Virus record (IMG/VR): IMGVR_UViG_3300022589_000019
Location: 5,169 to 69,168 of that record
DNA: 64,000 nucleotides
Origin: a virus
Lineage: Duplodnaviria > Caudoviricetes
Reading direction: 5' to 3' (one strand)
The position numbers and the translations under genes are program-made. The notes below the pieces were generated by a model that made no database searches, was not told where the DNA came from, and saw only the letters and a program-made list of their open reading frames with translations. This document shows, one piece after another, positions 3,142-41,322 of the stretch (position 1 is the stretch's first letter; each line of letters begins with the position of its first letter).

Positions 3142-4647
3142 TCACGCCTTATGACCGCCAATCTGGGAATTGCGGTCTTTGGCTGTTGCCCCTTCCTCAA
3201 GGTTCATACCTTTAAGGATTGCATTCTTTCCGAATTTCTTTTTTATATCAAGCATTGCCCGTTGCATTTTCTTTTCACGAGCAAGTGCCTCTTCCTCTTC
3301 TTTACGTTTAGGTTCCAGCTCTTCGTAGTCCGTGAACAATGTTAATTGTTCAGCCTGTTCTGTATTTTTGACTTCAGCCCCCGGTATCAGCTTACACGCA
3401 GCAAGCGTGATACGGCGGACAAGTAAATTCTTATCCACAATGCGGTCAAAAAGCTCCATAACGGCATCAACTATAAGACGAGTAGATGAGGTCTGTCTTT
3501 CAAGATTAGCCGTTCCGTGGGCGTGTTTTGGCACTTTACGACCGTAATGGTCAGTGGTAACTGGACCATTGTATTTTGCACTGATTTTTGGGTCTGTGAG
3601 GTTCTCTATATCATAACCTATGGTCAGCACCATTTGATTGGTCACAAGTTCCTTCTCGACAAGATCCAACACAAGCAGTTCCGTCATTTCACGGGTTACG
3701 AGTTTGGCTTTATCAAACGCATAGGGGCATTGGAGAATCTGCCCTGAACTTAGGCTATTGGTGCTTGGTTTGTATGCCTTAACCTCTGCGATGGTACAAG
3801 GTTCCCAACCCCAAGCGTGGTCGATGAGGAGTTCTGCGTTTACACCGAAGAGCTTATATAGCAAATCCTCATTATGCACAGAGCAACGTGCAACATCGCC
3901 CATCGTGTACATTCCGTTAGCCTCAAGTTTAGTCGCGTATCCTTTTCCAACCCGCCAGAAGTCCGTCAGCGGCTTGTGAGACCACAATTTCTCTCGATAT
4001 GACATTTCATCAAGTTCTGCGATACGAACACCATCTTTATCTGCGGGGATGTGCTTTGCGGTGATATCCATTGCAACCTTTGCAAGATACATATTTGTTC
4101 CGATTCCCGCTGTTGCGGTAATGCCGGTCGTTGTTAGGACATCCTTGATAAGCATCATAGCGAAGTCGTGTGCGGTGCCTTTGTAGCTGGAGAGGTAGTG
4201 GGTAATATCGATGAACACCTCATCAATGGAATATACATGAATATCCTCTGGAGCGATATATTTGAGATACACCTTGTAGATTTCGGTGCTGCGTTCCATA
4301 TACAACGCCATCTGCGGTGGTGCAACGATATAATCAAGTTCAAGGGAGGGGTTGCTCTGCAAATCTGGATTATGCGAAGATTGCCCCGTGAACTTTCGCC
4401 CCGGAGCTTTCCTCAAACGTTCTGCGTTTACTTCTTTTACTCGTTGTACGACTTCAAATAGCCTTGCTCTGCCGGAAACACCATACGATTTCAGTGATGG
4501 CGTAACCGCAAGGCATATTGTTTTTTCTGTTCGGCTCAAATCCGCAACCACAAGGTTTGTAGTCATTGGATCGAGACCGCGCTCCATGCATTCGACCGAA
4601 GCGTAAAATGACTTGAGGTCGATGCAAAGGTATGTGCGTTCAGCCAT
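3142..4647 (-). CDS. Y-family error-prone DNA polymerase (ImpB/MucB/SamB, UmuC/UvrX-like)
   Basis: YLCIDLKSFYASVE, YSIDEVFID, TATAGIGTNMYLAKVAMD, DFWRVGKG motifs; C-terminal KKFGKNAILKG. Confidence 0.95.
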   Translation of the reverse strand: MAERTYLCIDLKSFYASVECMERGLDPMTTNLVVADLSRTEKTICLAVTPSLKSYGVSGRARLFEVVQRVKEVNAERLRKAPGRKFTGQSSHNPDLQSNPSLELDYIVAPPQMALYMERSTEIYKVYLKYIAPEDIHVYSIDEVFIDITHYLSSYKGTAHDFAMMLIKDVLTTTGITATAGIGTNMYLAKVAMDITAKHIPADKDGVRIAELDEMSYREKLWSHKPLTDFWRVGKGYATKLEANGMYTMGDVARCSVHNEDLLYKLFGVNAELLIDHAWGWEPCTIAEVKAYKPSTNSLSSGQILQCPYAFDKAKLVTREMTELLVLDLVEKELVTNQMVLTIGYDIENLTDPKISAKYNGPVTTDHYGRKVPKHAHGTANLERQTSSTRLIVDAVMELFDRIVDKNLLVRRITLAACKLIPGAEVKNTEQAEQLTLFTDYEELEPKRKEEEEALAREKKMQRAMLDIKKKFGKNAILKGMNLEEGATAKDRNSQIGGHKA

Positions 4648-22192: not shown

Positions 22193-22451
22193 AGTAGACC
22201 TCCTTGAAAATAGTAACCATAGAAACCAAAGAAACCTTATCTCCAATTGACAGAAACCCTATCTACTATAGGCTGTAAATAGGATAAGGTATTCGACAGC
22301 ATTCGCAACGCTAATGCAGTATACTACATTATATCACAAATTTTGAATTAAGTCTATACCCACATCAGAATTTCTCGTAAAAGCGTAAAAATTTATGCGA
22401 ACGCAGAAATTTTATCCGCATAGCCTCTGCACTCTGTATCAACTGATCACT

Positions 22452-22608
22452 GGTAGCTCAACGGCGTGTAGCGGAAAACTGAATAATACAGCTGCCTTTT
22501 GAGCGGGTTTGCTGCAATCCGAAGCGGAGTTTTCCGTTAGGACTGCGGTTCTTTCTTCACGCCTTTGCAGCACCTAAAGCCTCCGTTTCGAGAAATCGAG
22601 AACGGAGG
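22452..22608 (+). ncRNA. Putative structured 5' leader of the sigma-like gene, ending in an RBS-sequestering hairpin
   Basis: cctccgtttcga-gaaa-tcgagaacggagg (22580-22608) contains the GGAGG RBS; further helices tgctgcaa/ttgcagca and ggcgtg/cacgcc. Confidence 0.5.
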
Positions 22609-22614
22609 TATTTT

Positions 22615-23100
22615 ATGTTAATTAAGTACGAATCAGTCACAGGAGAAATAACGGAGGTCGAGGTTTCGGAAGAAATCGGTGCCGTTATCATCGACTCTCG
22701 TCGCAAGGAAGAAAACCTTGCAAGAAAAGAACGCTATCACTGCTATTCGTTCGATGCCATCAAATATGGCGACAACGACAAGTTCGCTCCGACAACAGGA
22801 GAAACACCGCTCACGGAGTTGATTCGCAATGAGGATAACTCCTACATATATGAGGCATTTGCAAAACTATCAGATGTCCAACAGCGTCGCCTTCTCAAAC
22901 TTGCAACTGGGATGTCTATGCGTGAAATTGCAAGAGAAGAGTCAGTTGACCACCGGGCAGTTCGTGAGTGCATCGAATCGGCAAGAAAAAATTTTTTGAA
23001 GTTTTTTCAAAAAACACCTCCCCAAAACGACACCCTTTTCTCCGTAGATACGGAAGGGGCAAACAAAACCGCTTCTTCCGAAAGGAGTAAAAAGCAATGA
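22615..23100 (+). CDS. Sigma-70 region-4 (ECF-like) transcription regulator
   Basis: AFAKLSDVQQRRLLKLATGMSMREIAREESVDHRAVRECIESARK. Confidence 0.85.
   Translation: MLIKYESVTGEITEVEVSEEIGAVIIDSRRKEENLARKERYHCYSFDAIKYGDNDKFAPTTGETPLTELIRNEDNSYIYEAFAKLSDVQQRRLLKLATGMSMREIAREESVDHRAVRECIESARKNFLKFFQKTPPQNDTLFSVDTEGANKTASSERSKKQ
23016..23048 (+). promoter_or_regulatory. Putative promoter for the phage sigma-like factor, copy 1
   Basis: ACCTCCCCAAAAC-N10-TCTCCGTAGA; both blocks and the spacing are identical at 59280-59312. Confidence 0.65.
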
Positions 23101-32697: not shown

Positions 32698-33237
32698 ATG
32701 GCTAAAGACGGAACTGCACGAGGCGGTTCCAGGGTTGGATCGGGTCGAAAACCCAAGGCACTTGCAGACAAAATTGCCGACGGAAGACTTGATGGTGCGA
32801 TGGTTTTACCTACACCTACAGAAATAGAAGGTGTAGAAGTTCCACCGATTAAGGAGTATTTGAAGGCAAAACAGAAAAGCGGCAAAGACCTTTGTGCCGA
32901 AGAGGTCTACCGAGACACCTATGCGTGGCTTAAAGCTCGTGGCTGCGAACGGTTAGTAAACAACCAGCTTATCGAGCAATACGCAATGAGTGTCAGCCGT
33001 TGGATTCAGTGTGAGGAATGCATCTCCGAGTACGGCTTCCTTGCAAAGCATCCGACCACAGGAAATGCCATCGCATCACCCTATGTTGCGATGAGCCAGA
33101 CCTATATGAAACAGGTCAACCAGGTTTGGTATCAAATCTACCAAATCGTAAAAGAAAACTGTGCTGTGGAGTATGGCGGCAACTCTCCGCAGGACGATCT
33201 CATGGAGCGGTTGCTCTCCGCTCGGAAAGGAAACTAA
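32698..33237 (+). CDS. terS: Terminase small subunit (P27 family)
   Basis: RGGSRVGSGRKPK, LIEQYAMSVSRW, ASPYVAM. Confidence 0.9.
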   Translation: MAKDGTARGGSRVGSGRKPKALADKIADGRLDGAMVLPTPTEIEGVEVPPIKEYLKAKQKSGKDLCAEEVYRDTYAWLKARGCERLVNNQLIEQYAMSVSRWIQCEECISEYGFLAKHPTTGNAIASPYVAMSQTYMKQVNQVWYQIYQIVKENCAVEYGGNSPQDDLMERLLSARKGN

Positions 33238-33238
33238 T

Positions 33239-34021
33239 ATGTTTGAAAAAGTAAACCCTGCCCACCCCGACAAGGTGGCAGACAGAATTGCCGGGGCCAT
33301 TGTTGACCTGGCATATGCTGTCGAAGAAAACCCGAAGGTAGCTGTCGAGGTTCTTATCGGCCACGGCACATGCCACGCAATCATTGAAACAACTGCTGCC
33401 ATCGATAAAGTGGATGTAGCAAAAGCTATCCACCGCATCGGTGGCAATCTTATGTGTAACATCGTTGTTGTTCCCCAGGATACGCACCTTGCCCGTAATC
33501 AGGAAGATGCCATTCGCTGTGGTGATAACGGCATCTTCAAGGGTGTGCCTATGACAAAGGAACAGATGACCCTCTCCGGCATTGCAAGAGATATCTATGC
33601 TGTGCATCCTTATGATGGTAAGTACATTATTAACGGAGACAACCTTGTTATCTGTCAGAGCAACGTTGATACAAACGAACTCAAACAGCTCTATCCCAAG
33701 GCACAGATTAACCCGCTCGGAGATTGGACCGGCGGAACAGACGTTGATACTGGTGCTACAAACAGAAAGCTCGGCAGTGATATGGCCGATTCTGTTACAG
33801 GTGGTGGACTTCACGGCAAAGACCTCTCCAAAGCAGATGTCAGCGTAAACATTTACGCTTGGCTTGAGGCACAGAGAACCGGCAAGACTGTCGAACTCTG
33901 CTGTGCTATTGGTGATGAGACCGTTGGGGGCATTCCTTATGAGAAGATTGTCGAAACGGCTCGAAAGTTTATCACCTCCGTAGGCGGCTTTGAGAAATTT
34001 GCGGAATGGGGGCTGGTTTAA
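33239..34021 (+). CDS. metK: Compact phage S-adenosylmethionine synthetase
   Basis: EKVNPAHPDKVADRI, GDNGIF, DTGATNRK, GGGLHGKDLSKADVS; about 260 aa, shorter than cellular MetK. Confidence 0.88.
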   Translation: MFEKVNPAHPDKVADRIAGAIVDLAYAVEENPKVAVEVLIGHGTCHAIIETTAAIDKVDVAKAIHRIGGNLMCNIVVVPQDTHLARNQEDAIRCGDNGIFKGVPMTKEQMTLSGIARDIYAVHPYDGKYIINGDNLVICQSNVDTNELKQLYPKAQINPLGDWTGGTDVDTGATNRKLGSDMADSVTGGGLHGKDLSKADVSVNIYAWLEAQRTGKTVELCCAIGDETVGGIPYEKIVETARKFITSVGGFEKFAEWGLV

Positions 34022-35256
34022 TGCTTATTGAAAACAAGAAACTGACCGACCTTATTCCTGCTGACTATAATCCCCGTAAGGACTTAAAACCCGGTGACGA
34101 CGAATATGAAAAGCTGAAACGCTCCATTGAGCAGTTCGGTATGGTTCAGCCGGTCATTTGGAATAAAACTACGGGACGTGTGGTTGGCGGTCATCAGCGT
34201 TTGAAGGTTCTCATTGATATGGGACACACCGAAACCGAGTGTGTTATAGTCGAAATGGATGAAGCACAGGAAAAGGCTCTCAACATCGCTCTTAACAAAA
34301 TCAGCGGTGATTGGGATAAGGATAAATTGGCACTGCTTATTTCCGACTTGCAGGGCGAAGACTTTGACGTAACCCTTACGGGTTTTGACCCTCGTGAAAT
34401 CGATGACATCTTCAAGGCAACACTCCAGGAAGGTGTCAAAGAAGATGACTTTGACGTTGAGGCAGAACTGCAAAAGCCTACCTTCTCCAAGGCGGGCGAT
34501 CTTTGGATGCTCGGCAGACACCGCCTGGTTTGCGGTGACAGCACCAAGGCTGACACATTTGAGCTTCTGATGAACGGTGTCAAGGCAAACCTTGTCATCA
34601 CCGACCCACCCTACAACGTCAACTATGAAGGTTCGGCAGGCAAAATTAAAAACGATAATATGGCAAAAGAAGCGTTTTATCAGCTCTTGCTTGATTCCTT
34701 CACTAACACCGAAAGAGCAATGGCTGATGACGCTTCTATTTATATTTTCCATGCGGACACCGAGGGTTTAAATTTCCGCAGAGCCTTTGAGGATGCCGGC
34801 TTCTATCTTTCCGGCACGTGCATTTGGAAAAAGCAATCCCTGGTGCTTGGCCGTTCTCCTTATCAGTGGCAGCACGAACCCGTCCTCTTCGGTTGGAAGA
34901 AGAAAGGCAAACATCAGTGGTACACCGGCCGTAAGGAATCCACCATTTGGGAGTTCGACAAACCCAAGAAGAACGGTGACCATCCTACGATGAAACCTAT
35001 CCCTCTGTTGGCGTACCCCATTATGAATTCCTCAATGAGCAACACGGTTGTGCTTGACCCCTTTGGCGGTTCCGGTAGCACCTTGATTGCTTGTGAACAG
35101 ACAGAACGCATTTGCCACACCATCGAGCTGGATGAGAAGTTCTGCGATGTAATCGTAAAGCGTTACATTGAGCAGGTCGGCTCTTCCAAGGATGTAAAGG
35201 TTCAGCGTGATGGTTTAACTTACAGCTTTGACGAAGTTGGAGGTACAAATGAATAA
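34021..35256 (+). CDS. ParB-N-terminal domain fused to beta-class N4/N6 DNA methyltransferase
   Basis: YNPRK...VVGGHQR; TDPPY; HPTMKP; VLDPFGGSGST. Confidence 0.93.
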   Translation: MLIENKKLTDLIPADYNPRKDLKPGDDEYEKLKRSIEQFGMVQPVIWNKTTGRVVGGHQRLKVLIDMGHTETECVIVEMDEAQEKALNIALNKISGDWDKDKLALLISDLQGEDFDVTLTGFDPREIDDIFKATLQEGVKEDDFDVEAELQKPTFSKAGDLWMLGRHRLVCGDSTKADTFELLMNGVKANLVITDPPYNVNYEGSAGKIKNDNMAKEAFYQLLLDSFTNTERAMADDASIYIFHADTEGLNFRRAFEDAGFYLSGTCIWKKQSLVLGRSPYQWQHEPVLFGWKKKGKHQWYTGRKESTIWEFDKPKKNGDHPTMKPIPLLAYPIMNSSMSNTVVLDPFGGSGSTLIACEQTERICHTIELDEKFCDVIVKRYIEQVGSSKDVKVQRDGLTYSFDEVGGTNE

Positions 35257-37552
35257 CTTAACGCTCGGCAGCTTGTTTGATGGCTCGGGCGGTTTTCCTT
35301 TAGGCGGCTTGCTTTCCGGTATCACCCCTGTGTGGGCATCGGAAATCGAGCCGTTTCCTATTAGGGTTACCACCAAGCGGCTGCCTTTTATGAAACACTA
35401 TGGTGATATCTCCACTATGGATGGCGGGAAAATTGAACCCGTGGATATTATCACCTTCGGCTCTCCTTGCACCGATATGTCAGTGGCAGGTAAACGAGCC
35501 GGACTGGAAGGACGACAATCTGTGCTGTTCTACCAAGCCATCCGCATCATTAAAGAAATGAGGAGTGCCACCAATGGTAAATACCCAAGATACATCGTGT
35601 GGGAGAATGTCCCCGGCGCCTTCTCCTCAAACGGCGGAGAAGATTTCAAAGCCGTCCTCGAAGCGGTCATCGACATCGCAGAGCCGGACACCGAGGTGCC
35701 TATGCCTGAAAAAGGCAGATGGCCTTATGCAGACAGCTACATGGGAGACAGATGGAGCGTTGCTTACCGAACTCTCGATGCTCAATACTGGGGAGTCCCC
35801 CAACGCAGACGCCGCATCTACCTTGTCGCAGATTTTGCAGGCAAAGGTGCCCCCGACATATTATTTAAGTCCGAGGGCGTGTCAGGGTATTCTGCGGAGA
35901 GCTTCCGTGCGTGGCAAAGAGCTGCCGGAAGTGCTCCGTGTTGCATTGGAGCGTCAGGCTTCGATGGATACAACGGAGACTTAACGGGAGAGGTTTCTTC
36001 CACTCTCGGTGTAAACTGTGGTATGTCCACTGGTCGCAACGGCATCGTGCTAAACGACCAGGGCGGCAATCGAATGGATATCACCGATGAGGTAACCGCA
36101 ACCCTTCGAGCCGAAGCACACCACCCTCCGTGCGTGTTGGAATCAGCCGGGTTCTGTACCGAGCATTCAGCTAAAAGCCGTAGCATTGGTTACGAAGAGG
36201 AAACTTCTCCGACGCTCCGTGCCGGTGTTGTCCCGGCAGCAGTTGCCTTGGAAAACCATCCTGCCGACAGCAGAGTAACCATTGCGGATGATGATAAGGT
36301 ACAAACCCTAACCTCCCGTATGGGTACAGGTGGTGGCAATGTACCTCTCGTTATGAAAATCCGCTCCGGCTGTGAAGGCGGTGGAAAAGGCGCTTTGATT
36401 CAGGAAAACAAGTCCGCAACACTTTCTTGCAATAACGACCAAACCTTGTTTGAACCGTGTAGTTGGGATGGCGGACAGACCGTTTCTACCTTGACCGCAC
36501 ACAACGCAGGCGGAAGCCAACGAATGCCAGACAAGAACCACTTCAACTGTGTTCTGCAGGCTTATGGAATCTGTTCCAAAGATAGCAACGCTATGAAATC
36601 TGCCAATCCTCACAGTGGTATTTATGAGGCTGATACCTCTCGTACTCTTGATGGCAACGGTGGAAACCCCGGTTGCAACCAGGGTGGCATTGCTGTGGTA
36701 TGTGTCGACCAAGGCGGAGGTAAAAGTTCTTGCAGTGTCAGTGAGGATGTTTCTCCCACGCTTGCTTGTACCCACGGCGGTGAACCTGCGGTTTGTGTTA
36801 AGGGCGGAACAATTGTAATCGAAGGCAACGGCACCCGCCCCTCTCACCAAGGAGATGGTTATAAGGAGTCCGATGTGATGTACACCCTTAACACCGTTGA
36901 CCGCCACGCTGTCTATGCAATGACAACGGGCAGTTTCACACAGGTGTCTCAAGATACCTCCCCAACGCTTATGGCGAGAGACTTTAAAGACCCAAATGCT
37001 GTATGTTACGGCATCGGCAGAGATGCATTTAACCAGGGCAAAAACGCACAGTTCACTCCTTCGGTCTCTGAAGAGACACAACCGACACTGGTTGCCAAAG
37101 GCCCCGGTGCTGTTGCGACTCCTTATGGTTTTGACCCTTCTGCAAGTCGTGATGTTGGGCAGTACTTCCTTGAAGATTGTGGCAACACACTTGTCAACGG
37201 ATCTTGCCCCGGACACCATAACGGTGTTGTCGAGCCGACCTATACGGTTCGTAGATTAACTCCTACCGAATGTGCAAGACTTCAGGGCTTCCCCGATTGG
37301 TGGTGTGATAACCTCGGCATCGAAGAACCCACTATGGATGACATCCGTTACTGGTACGATGTGTTTGAGACCCACCGCAGAATTGTCGGCGGGTCCACAA
37401 AACCCAAGACCCTCAAGCAGATAAAGAAGTGGCTCACCGACCCGCATTCCGATGCTGCGGAATATAAGATGTGGGGCAACGGTGTGGCACTGCCTTGCGT
37501 GTTCTTTGTGCTTTCGGGCATTGTTTACTATAACAGCCTCAACGAAGGCTGA
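35249..37552 (+). CDS. C5-cytosine DNA methyltransferase with greatly expanded repetitive variable region
   Basis: SLFDGSGG, FGSPCTD, VWENVPG, QRRRRIY, RRLTPTECARLQGFP, WGNGV; about 12 'TL' repeats. Confidence 0.93.
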   Translation: MNNLTLGSLFDGSGGFPLGGLLSGITPVWASEIEPFPIRVTTKRLPFMKHYGDISTMDGGKIEPVDIITFGSPCTDMSVAGKRAGLEGRQSVLFYQAIRIIKEMRSATNGKYPRYIVWENVPGAFSSNGGEDFKAVLEAVIDIAEPDTEVPMPEKGRWPYADSYMGDRWSVAYRTLDAQYWGVPQRRRRIYLVADFAGKGAPDILFKSEGVSGYSAESFRAWQRAAGSAPCCIGASGFDGYNGDLTGEVSSTLGVNCGMSTGRNGIVLNDQGGNRMDITDEVTATLRAEAHHPPCVLESAGFCTEHSAKSRSIGYEEETSPTLRAGVVPAAVALENHPADSRVTIADDDKVQTLTSRMGTGGGNVPLVMKIRSGCEGGGKGALIQENKSATLSCNNDQTLFEPCSWDGGQTVSTLTAHNAGGSQRMPDKNHFNCVLQAYGICSKDSNAMKSANPHSGIYEADTSRTLDGNGGNPGCNQGGIAVVCVDQGGGKSSCSVSEDVSPTLACTHGGEPAVCVKGGTIVIEGNGTRPSHQGDGYKESDVMYTLNTVDRHAVYAMTTGSFTQVSQDTSPTLMARDFKDPNAVCYGIGRDAFNQGKNAQFTPSVSEETQPTLVAKGPGAVATPYGFDPSASRDVGQYFLEDCGNTLVNGSCPGHHNGVVEPTYTVRRLTPTECARLQGFPDWWCDNLGIEEPTMDDIRYWYDVFETHRRIVGGSTKPKTLKQIKKWLTDPHSDAAEYKMWGNGVALPCVFFVLSGIVYYNSLNEG

Positions 37553-37838
37553 TAATATAGTCTTCCGAATCGGTTATGTACTTTTCGTAATCGATTCGGG
37601 TGACGGCGTTACTGCTGTGGTGGTAACACATTCTTCCTGCCCAACCCAGGAAGCAAATGGTGCCGTCCGGTTGGAGGGACATAATATCATCTACAGGGCG
37701 TTCGGTTGGTTTTGCTCCATCCCCGTAGGTGATACCCTCCAATTCCGCATCGCTCATAAAGCGAAAACGGATAGCGTTGGTTTTAAGAAGGATATAAACC
37801 TTCTTGTCGATTCCAATGAGTTCTTTGATTTTGCGCAT
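37539..37838 (-). CDS. Orphan 99-aa protein under SAM-riboswitch control
   Basis: RBS AAGGAG (37848-37853); immediately downstream of the riboswitch terminator; 14-bp convergent overlap with the C5 MTase. Confidence 0.75.
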   Translation of the reverse strand: MRKIKELIGIDKKVYILLKTNAIRFRFMSDAELEGITYGDGAKPTERPVDDIMSLQPDGTICFLGWAGRMCYHHSSNAVTRIDYEKYITDSEDYIISLR

Positions 37839-37878
37839 AATAAAACGCTCCTTTAAGTTTATTACCTAAAGAGAGCGT

Positions 37879-37911
37879 AAAAAAGCAATCCTATCGTCAC
37901 GACAGGATTGC
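37879..37911 (-). terminator. Riboswitch intrinsic terminator
   Basis: 12-bp stem gcaatcctgtcg-tga-cgataggattgc followed by U6 on the minus strand. Confidence 0.9.
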
Positions 37912-37925
37912 AGAGTATCTCATAT

Positions 37926-38012
37926 AACCCTATCGTTCAAGCTTTGGCACCTTACCTTTCGGCAGGTTGTCGGCGGTCACAGGGCTTGTCCCTCACGCAC
38001 TCTTTATAGGTT
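37926..38012 (-). ncRNA. SAM-I (S-box) riboswitch aptamer, P4-less variant
   Basis: AACCUAU-A-AAGAG-UGCG-UGAGGGACAAGCCC-UGUGA-CCGC-CGACAACC-UGCC-GAAA-GGUA-AGGUGCC-AAAG-CUUG-AAC-GAUAGGGUU; compensatory pseudoknot CAAG/CUUG. Confidence 0.88.
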
Positions 38013-38018
38013 GCATAT

Positions 38019-38047
38019 AGGATAGCACAAAAATCTCGATTTGTCAA
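38019..38047 (-). promoter_or_regulatory. Sigma-A promoter driving the riboswitch
   Basis: TTGACA (38042-38047), 17 bp spacer, TGc-TATCCT (38019-38024); predicted start at the first aptamer bases. Confidence 0.85.
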
Positions 38048-38183
38048 TGAGACGTGTACATTACACAAATAAAACTACAGAATAAGGCTACATATTCTAC
38101 ACCGAATAATGTGCGAATTAACTGGATATATCTCGTACTTGACGGTAATATGTGACTACCAAAAAACAAAGGAGGTCATAGTA

Positions 38184-38975
38184 ATGACAATCAAGTACAA
38201 TGTTCCCGGCAAGGAACGCAAACGAATGGTTCTCACCATTGCAAAGTGGCTCGGTGAAGAGGTCAAATACCTGGGTGCTCCCAGCTTTGCCTACGAGGTG
38301 GATTACTTCACCATCGACAAGGACGGCAACCTTATTTTTGACGACCGCGCTGACAGCGAGGTTATCGAGAGGTTGCTTGAGCACCTTTACGATGAAGGCT
38401 TTGAGAGTGACATGAGTGCCGATGAGCCAAAGGGCATCGCAATCCAAATCCCAATGGCTGACTTTACCGTAGCATCCCTTCAAAACCTTTTTGACCTGGT
38501 CGAATCCAAAGGCAATCTTATAAAGAAAGCCTTGGGAGTAGACGATCTTCCTATTAATCTCATCGGTGAGCGTTTAGATTTCCCTTGGTTCAAGGCGGAC
38601 AGCACTCCCGATGAAATCAAAACCTATATGGAGTTTGTTACAGCGTTATGCAATATGGCAAAGAATCAAAGGCGGATAAACGCAAAAGAGAAAGAAGTCG
38701 AAAACGAGAAATACGCATTCCGATGCTTTCTCCTTCGTCTCGGCTTTATCGGCAACGAATACAAATTGCAAAGAAAAATCCTCCTGCGAAACCTCGAAGG
38801 TTCTTCCGCTTTCAAGGGTAGCACACCAAAGACCTACAAGGTAGAACTCGATAACGATAACTTTAAGATTTTCACAGCAGAGAACGACCGCAAGGCACAT
38901 GAGATGGCACTTGCCATTGCAAAAGACCACGGCAGCGAATTCTGCGAAGTTTCAGAATACAAGGAGGAAGCATAA
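38184..38975 (+). CDS. Phage 'virulence-related'-type hypothetical protein
   Basis: YLGAPSFAYEVDYFTIDKDG, NEKYAFRCFLLRLGFIG...RKILLRNLEGSSAFK; start reassigned to 38184. Confidence 0.75.
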   Translation: MTIKYNVPGKERKRMVLTIAKWLGEEVKYLGAPSFAYEVDYFTIDKDGNLIFDDRADSEVIERLLEHLYDEGFESDMSADEPKGIAIQIPMADFTVASLQNLFDLVESKGNLIKKALGVDDLPINLIGERLDFPWFKADSTPDEIKTYMEFVTALCNMAKNQRRINAKEKEVENEKYAFRCFLLRLGFIGNEYKLQRKILLRNLEGSSAFKGSTPKTYKVELDNDNFKIFTAENDRKAHEMALAIAKDHGSEFCEVSEYKEEA

Positions 38976-39205
38976 TGTTTGGTATAAGCAAAGGAACACT
39001 CGAAATGCTCAAGGAGCGTTACCCTAAAGGCTGTCGTGTTGAGTTGGTTCATATGAATGATCCCTTCAACACAAAACTCGTCCCTGGCTGCAAAGGCACT
39101 GTAACAAGTGTCGATGACATTGGCACGATCCACGTGCAGTGGGATTGCGGTTCATCACTCGGCATTGCCTACGGTGAGGATGTATGCAGAAAGGTGGACG
39201 ATTAA
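38975..39205 (+). CDS. DUF4314-like protein
   Basis: YPKGCRVELVHMND...GTVTSVDDIGTIHVQWDCGSSL. Confidence 0.85.
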   Translation: MFGISKGTLEMLKERYPKGCRVELVHMNDPFNTKLVPGCKGTVTSVDDIGTIHVQWDCGSSLGIAYGEDVCRKVDD

Positions 39206-39206
39206 G

Positions 39207-39383
39207 ATGGATGATAAAGTTCGTGAGCAGATCCTCGCAGTACGAGACACGGGACTTACCAATATGTTTAATGTTAATACCGTTCAACGTATTGCCTTTG
39301 AAGCCGGATACTACGAACTGGTAAACTACCTGGAAGACCACCGTAAAGAGTATGTGCATTTCATTATGACGGGCGAAGCGTAA
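39207..39383 (+). CDS. DUF5049-like protein
   Basis: EQILAVRDTGLTNMF...YVHFIMTG; start reassigned. Confidence 0.8.
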   Translation: MDDKVREQILAVRDTGLTNMFNVNTVQRIAFEAGYYELVNYLEDHRKEYVHFIMTGEA

Positions 39384-39396
39384 AGGTGGTGTGCTT

Positions 39397-39624
39397 ATGT
39401 GGAAAGAAGGCAGTTTAAAGGTTTACAACAGCATTTTTCATTACTGGATTAAGGTTTACCCCGTGGGAAGCAAGTTCGGTATTGAGGGCGGCAAAATATC
39501 AAAGCTGATGCTCAAGCGCGATGGCAAGGTCGTATGTAACTACGACAGAGGTTGGGACATCAAACCCGTTGACAATGATACGCAAATGGCATACGAGATT
39601 TTGGTTCACACCGAAAACTACTAA
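39397..39624 (+). CDS. Small conserved phage protein
   Basis: MWKEG...KFGIEGGKISKL...YDRGWD. Confidence 0.75.
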   Translation: MWKEGSLKVYNSIFHYWIKVYPVGSKFGIEGGKISKLMLKRDGKVVCNYDRGWDIKPVDNDTQMAYEILVHTENY

Positions 39625-39720: not shown

Positions 39721-41322
39721 ATCAGAAAGTTAAAAAATTACAAGCCTACGAGGTTTATGGCAAAGGATTCTTACTACGATAAGGCTTCCGCTGACTATGC
39801 GGTCAACTTTATCGAGTGCCTTTGTCACACGAAGGGTATATGGGCAAGAAAACCTTTTGAACTTATAGACTGGCAAGAACAGATCATCCGTGATGTGTTC
39901 GGCATTCTAAAACCAAACGGATATAGACAGTTTAATTCTGTGTATGTAGAAATACCCAAAAAGCAAGGCAAGTCAGAACTTGCGGCAGCGGTCGCATTAT
40001 TCCTAACTTGCGGTGATGGAGAGGAACGTGCCGAGGTATACGGCTGTGCTTCTGACAGACAGCAAGCATCCATTGTTTTTAATGTTGCTGCTGATATGGT
40101 TCGCATGTGTCCGGCACTCGCCAAACGAGTAAAAATCCTCGACTCACAGAAACGATTGATTTACCTTCCTACGAACAGTGTGTATCAAGTGCTTTCTGCG
40201 GATGTCAATAACAAGCACGGTTTTAACACTCACGGGGTTGTCTTTGATGAACTGCATACACAGCCAAACCGCAATTTACACGATGTAATGAATATCGGCT
40301 CAGGTGACTCAAGAATGCAGCCGGTGTTCTGGGATATAACAACCGCTGGAACAAATACAAATTCTATCTGCTACGAAATTCATCAAAAGGCGGTTGATAT
40401 TATCGAAGGAAGAAAAATAGACCCTACTTTTTATCCTGTGATTTACGGTGCTGATGAAGATGATGATTGGACAGACCCAAAGGTGTGGGCAAAGGCAAAT
40501 CCTTCTCTTGGGGTTACAGTGGATATCGAAAAGGTTCGTGCAGCCTGCGAATCAGCAAAGCAAAACCCCGGTGAAGAAAACTCCTTCCGTCAGCTTCGTT
40601 TAAATCAATGGGTTAAACAAACGGTGCGTTGGATGCCAATGGATAAATGGGATAAATGTGCGTTTGTTGTTAACGAGGACGAATTGGAAGGCCGTGTCTG
40701 TTACGGTGGTCTTGACCTTTCATCCACAACGGATATCACGGCATTGGTATTGGTATTTCCACCTACCGATGAGGACGACAAATATGTTGTCCTACCGTAC
40801 TTTTGGATACCCGAGGATAACATTGACCTTCGTGTAAAGCGAGACCACGTCCCATATGACGTTTGGGAGCGGCAAGGCTTTATGCAAACCACCGAGGGTA
40901 ATGTTGTCCACTACGGCTATATCGAGAAGTTTATTGAACGGCTCGGTGAGCGTTTCAATATTCGTGAGATTGCATTCGACCGTTGGGGTGCTGTCCAGAT
41001 GGTACAGAACCTTGAAGGTATGGGTTTCACGGTCGTTCCTTTCGGACAGGGTTTCAAAGATATGTCCCCGCCTACGAAGGAGTTAATGAAACTGGTGCTC
41101 GAAGAGAAGATTGCCCACGGTGGACACCCCGTCCTTCGTTGGATGATGGACAACATCTTCATTCGCACCGACCCTGCCGGTAACATCAAACCGGATAAGG
41201 AAAAATCCACAGAGAAAATTGACGGTGCGGTTGCCACCATTATGGCTCTCGACCGTGCGATTCGCTGTGGCAACGATACTACTGCTTCGGTATATAACGA
41301 CCGAGGCATTTTGTTTATCTGA
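39721..41322 (+). CDS. terL: Terminase large subunit (probable ATC start; first ATG at 39757)
   Basis: EIPKKQGKS, VVFDELH, ITTAG, IAFDRW, KIDGAVA; AAGGAGGTG RBS lies 7 nt before the in-frame ATC. Confidence 0.93.
   Translation: MRKLKNYKPTRFMAKDSYYDKASADYAVNFIECLCHTKGIWARKPFELIDWQEQIIRDVFGILKPNGYRQFNSVYVEIPKKQGKSELAAAVALFLTCGDGEERAEVYGCASDRQQASIVFNVAADMVRMCPALAKRVKILDSQKRLIYLPTNSVYQVLSADVNNKHGFNTHGVVFDELHTQPNRNLHDVMNIGSGDSRMQPVFWDITTAGTNTNSICYEIHQKAVDIIEGRKIDPTFYPVIYGADEDDDWTDPKVWAKANPSLGVTVDIEKVRAACESAKQNPGEENSFRQLRLNQWVKQTVRWMPMDKWDKCAFVVNEDELEGRVCYGGLDLSSTTDITALVLVFPPTDEDDKYVVLPYFWIPEDNIDLRVKRDHVPYDVWERQGFMQTTEGNVVHYGYIEKFIERLGERFNIREIAFDRWGAVQMVQNLEGMGFTVVPFGQGFKDMSPPTKELMKLVLEEKIAHGGHPVLRWMMDNIFIRTDPAGNIKPDKEKSTEKIDGAVATIMALDRAIRCGNDTTASVYNDRGILFI

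Follow-up and report, generated by a model that had tools for sequence, protein, structure and literature searches.

A phage-borne S-box riboswitch unit with a conserved small gene, convergent on a C5 DNA methyltransferase

A close described counterpart of the locus analysed here is the ubiG-mccBA operon of Clostridium acetobutylicum, where an S-adenosylmethionine (SAM)-I, or S-box, riboswitch and its terminator platform converge on the 3′ end of an operon encoding a SAM-dependent methyltransferase (MTase; Andre et al., 2008). There, the downstream S-box promoter makes noncoding antisense RNAs of 200–1000 nucleotides (nt) that end without classical terminators; deletion of this promoter abolishes sulfur-dependent control, and antisense RNA supplied in trans fails to restore it (PMC2566862). 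A computational survey that predicts antisense-acting riboswitches (Serrano-Gutierrez and Merino, 2023, PMC9943018) applies a 500-nt distance rule and regards small intervening open reading frames (ORFs) without orthologues as likely misannotations; SAM riboswitches account for 56 of its cases and are not enriched (P = 1.0). Here, we describe a locus of this geometry in a 64-kb window (the whole stretch of DNA that was analysed) of the 69-kb IMG/VR phage record IMGVR_UViG_3300022589_000019. A minus-strand SAM-I riboswitch stands in front of a conserved ORF of 99 amino acids (aa), ORF99, whose 3′ end meets that of a plus-strand C5 cytosine DNA MTase gene.

The parallel with ubiG, a precedent that an earlier note on this sequence had cited correctly, is considerable. 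Read-through RNA would again leave the platform without a classical terminator ahead of it, and low SAM should raise antisense transcription. In contrast to ubiG, whose read-through RNAs are noncoding and whose regulation in cis has been shown experimentally, the window locus is known from sequence and holds the conserved ORF99 in between; moreover, the ORF99 unit is mostly found away from MTases. Set against the surveyed cases, the distance from the aptamer end at 37927 to the MTase stop at 37552 on the opposite strand (375 nt) falls within the 500-nt rule, and the convergent enzyme uses the sensed metabolite, matching the sensed-cofactor class, whereas the intervening ORF has hundreds of orthologues (PMC9943018). 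The locus therefore shares with antisense-acting riboswitches of the ubiG type its convergence on a nearby 3′ end with no terminator between, and departs from them in that its read-through RNA is coding and its riboswitch-target pairing is not kept wherever the switch occurs. On balance, we consider it probable that the locus is a mobile S-box cassette, in which SAM-dependent production of ORF99 is the selected feature and antisense run-on is a by-product of compaction at the insertion site. This presence of a conserved coding gene with a strong ribosome-binding site (RBS), which fills the interval between riboswitch and MTase, was not stressed in the earlier note.

Membership of the leader in the SAM-I class is confirmed by its score, its core, and its mutually exclusive terminator and antiterminator. 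The window sequence (Table 1) matches RF00162 at 53.1 bits against a gathering score of 44.4 (E 2e-9), with the full model (1–108) covered and the P4 positions deleted, and the riboswitches of relatives score 49–65 bits. The SAM-I core is retained, comprising P1, J1/2 with its AAGAG, the P2 GA/UGA kink-turn, P3 with CAACC/GGUGC, and J3/4, and is invariant in eight relatives; the −35 hexamer of the promoter is likewise unchanged across eight aligned relatives. The 5′ arm of the terminator stem is complementary to the P1 3′ strand, which provides the antiterminator option, and compensatory changes in the terminator stem occur in the related loci L007 and L012. We infer that the ligand is SAM; spermidine-sensing variants of SAM-I are known (PMC10853860), and the gene behind the window riboswitch is not a met/cys gene. 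The leader resembles the classical S-box (RF00162) attenuation leaders of met/cys genes in Bacillota: it has their promoter and aptamer core, an antiterminator that competes with the terminator, and the logic of an OFF switch. It differs from them in lacking P4, in controlling a small uncharacterised protein, in being carried by a phage, and in possessing an extra hairpin that sequesters the Shine-Dalgarno (SD) sequence.

The unit would be self-contained: a sigma-A-type promoter is followed by the SAM-I aptamer without P4, the switch between terminator and antiterminator, the SD-sequestering hairpin, and ORF99. At high SAM, transcription is expected to stop at 37885–37879; at low SAM, the antiterminator would form, and ORF99 would be transcribed and probably also released for translation. 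The latter expectation stems from the SD hairpin, whose 5′ arm (CUCUUUAGG and variants) is complementary to the P1 5′ strand and J1/2 of the aptamer (CCUAUAAAGAG; 38000–38012, minus strand). The corresponding duplexes have energies of −12 to −24 kcal/mol, with z-scores of −2.5 to −4.2 relative to shuffled sequences, and the complementarity is also seen across the loci L020–L079. In L079, a compensatory pair is formed by CCAUAGAGAG in the aptamer and CUCUUUAUGG in the hairpin arm, although covariation support for this pairing is limited overall because the aptamer strand is almost invariant. Together, these features suggest that one SAM-I aptamer may gate both transcription termination and translation initiation: at low SAM, the freed P1 5′ strand would capture the anti-SD arm and release the SD sequence. 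The SD hairpin itself exhibits compensatory changes between lineages and follows the U-tract in every leader of the riboswitch clade, including those of L022, L027, L032, and L043. In these four IMG/VR contigs, four unrelated ORFs of 106–150 aa stand behind the same P4-less SAM-I leader, which has its promoter, its terminator, and its SD hairpin in each case.

What the switch has been retained for is best judged from the company it keeps, and about 120 related loci were drawn on for this comparison. A SAM riboswitch lies directly upstream of the ORF99 homologue in all 49 loci scanned with Rfam, namely, a GenBank phage (L001), 15 of 15 IMG/VR loci, 31 of 31 loci from bacterial genomes (Oscillospiraceae, Acutalibacteraceae, Ruminococcus, Faecalibacterium, and Lachnospiraceae), and the distant homologues of L020 (28% identity) and L034 (42%). 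The same leader was recognized by pattern match in L037 (33% identity) and L047. Linkage to the MTase is of a different kind. ORF99 converges on a large C5 MTase, with overlaps of 11–34 bp, in the 16 of 16 phage loci first examined, whereas among the bacterial genome copies an MTase is found within 3 kb in 8 of 31 and is not nearby in the remaining 23. These MTase-free genome copies occupy varied contexts, several of which look chromosomal or housekeeping by a reading of the translations of neighbouring ORFs. L020 and L037 also have no MTase nearby, and in L020 the cassette sits within a tail module and points in the same direction as the genes that follow. In a tree of ORF99, the copies that face an MTase are intermingled with those that have none, and at least two switches of context are required by well-supported branches, although the protein is short and the backbone of the tree is weakly resolved. 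Because the riboswitch-ORF99 linkage is complete (49/49) and most genome copies lie away from an MTase, ORF99 emerges as the probable selected target of the switch.

Viewed from the MTase side, the cassette is an accessory. Among the 76 closest IMG/VR MTase loci with at least 600 nt of downstream sequence, scored for the cassette by ORF99 only, ORF99 is present in 6 and absent in 70. In these 70, an amidoligase-like gene comes after the MTase on the same strand and the interval lacks ORF99; the two genes are direct neighbours in most, and other insertions separate them in a few. MTases 84–88% identical to that of the window are found without ORF99, the amidoligase-like gene following 45–110 nt downstream on the same strand. 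A single carrier of the cassette was found among about 22 GenBank phage records. In the phage lineage of the window, the cassette would seem to have entered, in reverse orientation, the short spacer that separates the C5 MTase from the late gene after it. That spacer is an insertion hot spot, since other insertions occupy it in L118, L105, L134, and L145/L019; Rfam gave no match to other insertions at the site. One of them, at L118:2088–2830, holds a minus-strand ORF of 58 aa whose product looks like a ribbon-helix-helix repressor, a plus-strand gene of 113 aa, and, beside the stop codon of the MTase, a bidirectional terminator, and the spacer of L145/L019 contains a terminator oriented for the minus strand.

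As an accessory, reverse-oriented unit with its own promoter, placed between late-operon genes in a minority of related phages, the cassette resembles phage morons. Unlike typical morons, it has no terminator of its own in the window or in any overlapping copy, although many MTase-free copies have one: 13–16 of about 26 such copies carry a strong terminator (−18 to −27 kcal/mol) 30–70 nt past the ORF99 stop. At the window site, the 3′ ends of ORF99 and the C5 MTase overlap tail to tail by 14 bp (37539–37552), an overlap that the earlier note had reported for the convergent riboswitch transcript. Its further observation, that little more than a weak hairpin with a poor U-tract separates the switch transcript from the MTase, also stands. 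The hairpin is real (Table 1); it is followed on the minus strand by UUAUAGUAAAC, and conservation of it was looked for in relatives and not found. The scans brought to light no convincing intrinsic terminator past ORF99. Minus-strand terminator-like sites in 34500–39500 are no more numerous than expected by chance, a looser scan returned nothing convincing in the roughly 450 nt downstream of the ORF99 stop, and base composition downstream of ORF99 lacks the C-over-G skew of a Rho-type signal. A second hairpin of 15 bp at 37565–37599 on the plus strand (−24.8 kcal/mol, z −5.5) starts 13 nt past the MTase stop and has no U-tract; G-U pairs make it stronger on the plus strand. As a candidate 3′-end structure of the MTase mRNA, it was set aside: L003 shares it, but L004, L008, and other relatives do not, and, being unconserved, it is probably incidental.

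Because the cassette has no terminator and overlaps the MTase stop, its ON-state transcript would run on antisense into the 3′ end of the MTase, a course that appears physically unavoidable in the phage lineage of the window. It would presumably continue until it encounters Rho, an oncoming polymerase, or weak pause sites, the actual 3′ ends at the locus being themselves projected. In this respect, the locus is like an excludon, in that a transcript is predicted to overlap a neighbouring gene; the definition of excludons, however, draws on mapped transcripts and on genes of opposing function, and here the overlap is read from the DNA. The description that suits the locus best is that of an S-box moron whose unterminated overlap onto the convergent gene is excludon-like.

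The earlier note had proposed that read-through at low SAM could shut down the C5 MTase, and possibly the late transcript, until SAM recovers. Such repression, which might extend to late genes lying beyond the cassette, would act either by head-on transcriptional interference or through formation of an RNA duplex and would provide a SAM checkpoint of the ubiG type. The part of this proposal that holds up is its geometry: no terminator stands between the riboswitch platform and the MTase gene, ORF99 overlaps that gene by 14 bp, and the aptamer lies inside the 500-nt criterion (PMC9943018); the antisense RNAs of ubiG likewise end without classical terminators (PMC2566862), and the phage MetK-like gene and two MTase genes, each overlapping its neighbour, share one plus-strand operon. 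What the comparison does not bear out is the idea that the arrangement is kept for the sake of the MTase, as it is with ORF99, a coding gene with its own RBS for which ubiG offers no equivalent, that the riboswitch is linked, independently of the MTase and with 70 of the 76 closest MTase loci lacking the cassette altogether. Furthermore, the promoter would fire in both SAM states, such that only the length of the convergent transcript changes. In L034 and L047, whose cassettes also face an MTase, a strong terminator between ORF99 and the MTase abuts the MTase stop and shields the enzyme gene. We therefore regard repression of the MTase as the function of the locus as unlikely. An effect of the antisense transcript on the MTase or late genes is possible, as distinct from what the arrangement seems to be conserved for.

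The shielding sequence in L034 (4098–4290) and L047 is of interest in itself. Behind the ORF99 homologue comes a perfect promoter (TTGACA-17-TATAAT), then a structured RNA of about 115 nt, and then the strong terminator; together they are apparently an independent small-RNA unit that protects the MTase from antisense read-through. The element of L034 has no Rfam family match.

Several observations weigh against the view that run-on is a by-product. A strong terminator within 100 nt of the ORF99 stop is missing from all of the roughly 30 copies that face an MTase, as opposed to about half of the MTase-free copies, although copies within one lineage are not independent. Overlaps of 11, 14, 20, and 34 bp show that the junction was reshaped more than once, yet a spacer has been gained only in L034/L047. 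In L043, the unrelated riboswitch-controlled ORF also faces a different, Dcm-type MTase; this MTase of 322 aa lies next to an ORF of 469 aa, with which it possibly forms a restriction-modification system. Finally, the position of the cassette in the window, between the genes for SAM-consuming enzymes and those for packaging, fits the logic of a checkpoint. These four features are compatible with selection for antisense run-on. A further elaboration is that the cassette has been co-opted in this phage lineage, such that at low SAM the head-on transcript would cut MTase and late-gene expression until SAM recovers, and no unmethylated genomes would be packaged; recovery would be aided by the phage MetK, whose gene lies upstream of the zone of collision. 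We hold this elaboration to be distinctly improbable.

Interference may also act in the opposite direction. The plus-strand late transcript, spanning TerS, MetK, the MTases, the amidoligase, and TerL, could read through the cassette and silence ORF99 during lytic growth, so that production of ORF99 would be confined to lysogeny or the early phase of infection, and then to low SAM. Almost all genes between 22.6 and 57 kb of the window lie on the plus strand, and a consensus scan of 34500–39500 detected no terminator-like or promoter-like site on that strand. The plus-strand version of the riboswitch terminator hairpin is followed by AGAGTATC and has no T-tract, and in cassette-free relatives no terminator is visible in the 45–110 nt that separate the MTase from the next gene. 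The late promoters of this phage, which has a sigma-like gene and a DUF2800 RNA, may, however, be of a non-sigma-70 type and lie just upstream of 38109. Since the late transcript apparently reads through the whole cassette, silencing of ORF99 is at least as likely as repression of the MTase, and we entertain it as a tentative possibility. By-product run-on, repression of the MTase, and silencing of ORF99 by late transcription are not mutually exclusive.

The protein at the centre of the favoured interpretation, a mobile cassette maintained for ORF99, belongs to a well-populated family with 237 close homologues of 96–100 aa and 259 clusters at 50% identity. The family has strongly conserved motifs, and its C-terminal tail, encoded in the stretch that overlaps the MTase, is variable. 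Neither Pfam, PHROGs, PADLOC, nor a PDB sequence profile returned a match to ORF99, and no usable match came from the ESM Atlas, from Foldseek against PDB and BFVD, or from a wide VIA-align search, in which the best Z-score was 3.2; the top BFVD matches are uncharacterised phage proteins at E ~6e-3. A weak ESM Atlas lead to the T4 RegA family, at a score of 0.84, falls under the reliable range and was not used. With a deep alignment, AlphaFold2 gives a confident model of a small alpha/beta domain (predicted local distance difference test, or pLDDT, of 89, compared with 58 for a shallow alignment), and this model has no significant fold match in PDB or BFVD.

It is conceivable that ORF99 acts as a protein on the MTase or on the phage MetK, as a partner or a modulator, and that its tail-to-tail position reflects this link and not an RNA mechanism. 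The cassette sits beside an MTase in several ORF99 subclades, and expression of ORF99 is predicted to be tied to SAM; nevertheless, with most ORF99 genes of bacterial genomes having no MTase within 3 kb, and no domain or fold of the protein pointing to a function, we consider such a partnership very unlikely. ORF99-like domains also occur fused to an N-formylglutamate amidohydrolase (FGase; P0156, 359 aa) and to a D-2-hydroxyacid dehydrogenase (P0216, 430 aa). These fusions may be real or gene-calling artefacts, and their partners gave no coherent hint to the function of ORF99. A similar P4-less SAM-I riboswitch was encountered at 3728–4172 of L002 (MT835503.1), a record labelled "Bacteriophage sp.", where the small ORF behind it proved unrelated to ORF99. 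The neighbouring genes, judged by their ORF translations, are of bacterial housekeeping types (tryptophan-synthase-beta-like, aldo-keto reductase, and HAD hydrolase), and the record may for this reason not be viral.

Irrespective of any interference, gut Oscillospiraceae and their phages appear to share a mobile S-box unit that would make a conserved protein of about 99 aa only at low SAM. The unit would therefore add a new part to the SAM regulon of an abundant group of human gut bacteria. Should the antisense effect prove true, the locus would be only the third antisense-acting riboswitch with experimental support, and the first from a phage; a host metabolite would then be coupled directly to methylation of the phage DNA and to expression of its late genes. 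A genuine checkpoint would, in addition, be without described precedent among phages as a case of transcriptional interference gated by a riboswitch. Our literature search found no paper reporting a riboswitch in Heliusvirales, the group to which the window phage is related.

Table 1. Positions, strands, and properties of the features at and around the riboswitch locus, in window coordinates
Feature	Positions	Strand	Properties
Sigma-70-type cassette promoter	38019..38047	−	TTGACA, 17 nt, TATCCT; TG upstream of −10
SAM-I (S-box) aptamer	37927..38012	−	Short form without P4; RF00162
Expression platform	37879..37911	−	12-bp intrinsic terminator stem-loop 37911..37885, then U6 at 37884..37879
SD-sequestering hairpin	37845..37878	−	Folds; buries the SD sequence (AAAGGAG RBS)
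ORF99 (P0001)	37539..37838	−	99 aa; AAAGGAG RBS; conserved 96–100-aa protein
Weak hairpin	37534..37551		6–7 bp; −9 to −10 kcal/mol, z −3 to −4
MetK-like SAM synthetase	33161–34021	+	Short; gene overlaps ParB-N6/N4 MTase gene
ParB-N6/N4 DNA MTase	34006–35256	+	Gene overlaps C5 MTase gene
C5 cytosine DNA MTase	35228..37552	+	774 aa from TTG 35228; likely start ATG at 35249; PF00145, E 8e-38
Amidoligase-like late gene	38109..38975	+	Separated from C5 MTase gene by the cassette
TerL	39757–41322	+

The source record of the window is rated complete by CheckV. The closest GenBank relative of the phage is Ruminococcus phage NatCom_28274 of Candidatus (Ca.) Heliusvirales, and the lineage of the window phage is Ca. 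Heliusvirales-like; members of the order Ca. Heliusvirales are largely temperate and carry Dcm genes in 67% and MetK in 59% of cases (PMC11283538). Around the locus, the plus-strand order is HNH endonuclease, TerS, MetK-like protein, ParB-N6/N4 MTase, C5 MTase, amidoligase-like protein, and TerL, interrupted between the C5 MTase and amidoligase-like genes by the minus-strand island of promoter, aptamer, terminator, SD hairpin, and ORF99. The DUF2800 RNA motif of the phage (RF02960, 127 bits) is at 22424–22577 on the plus strand, upstream of a gene of 161 aa at 22615; the same motif is also present in L043.

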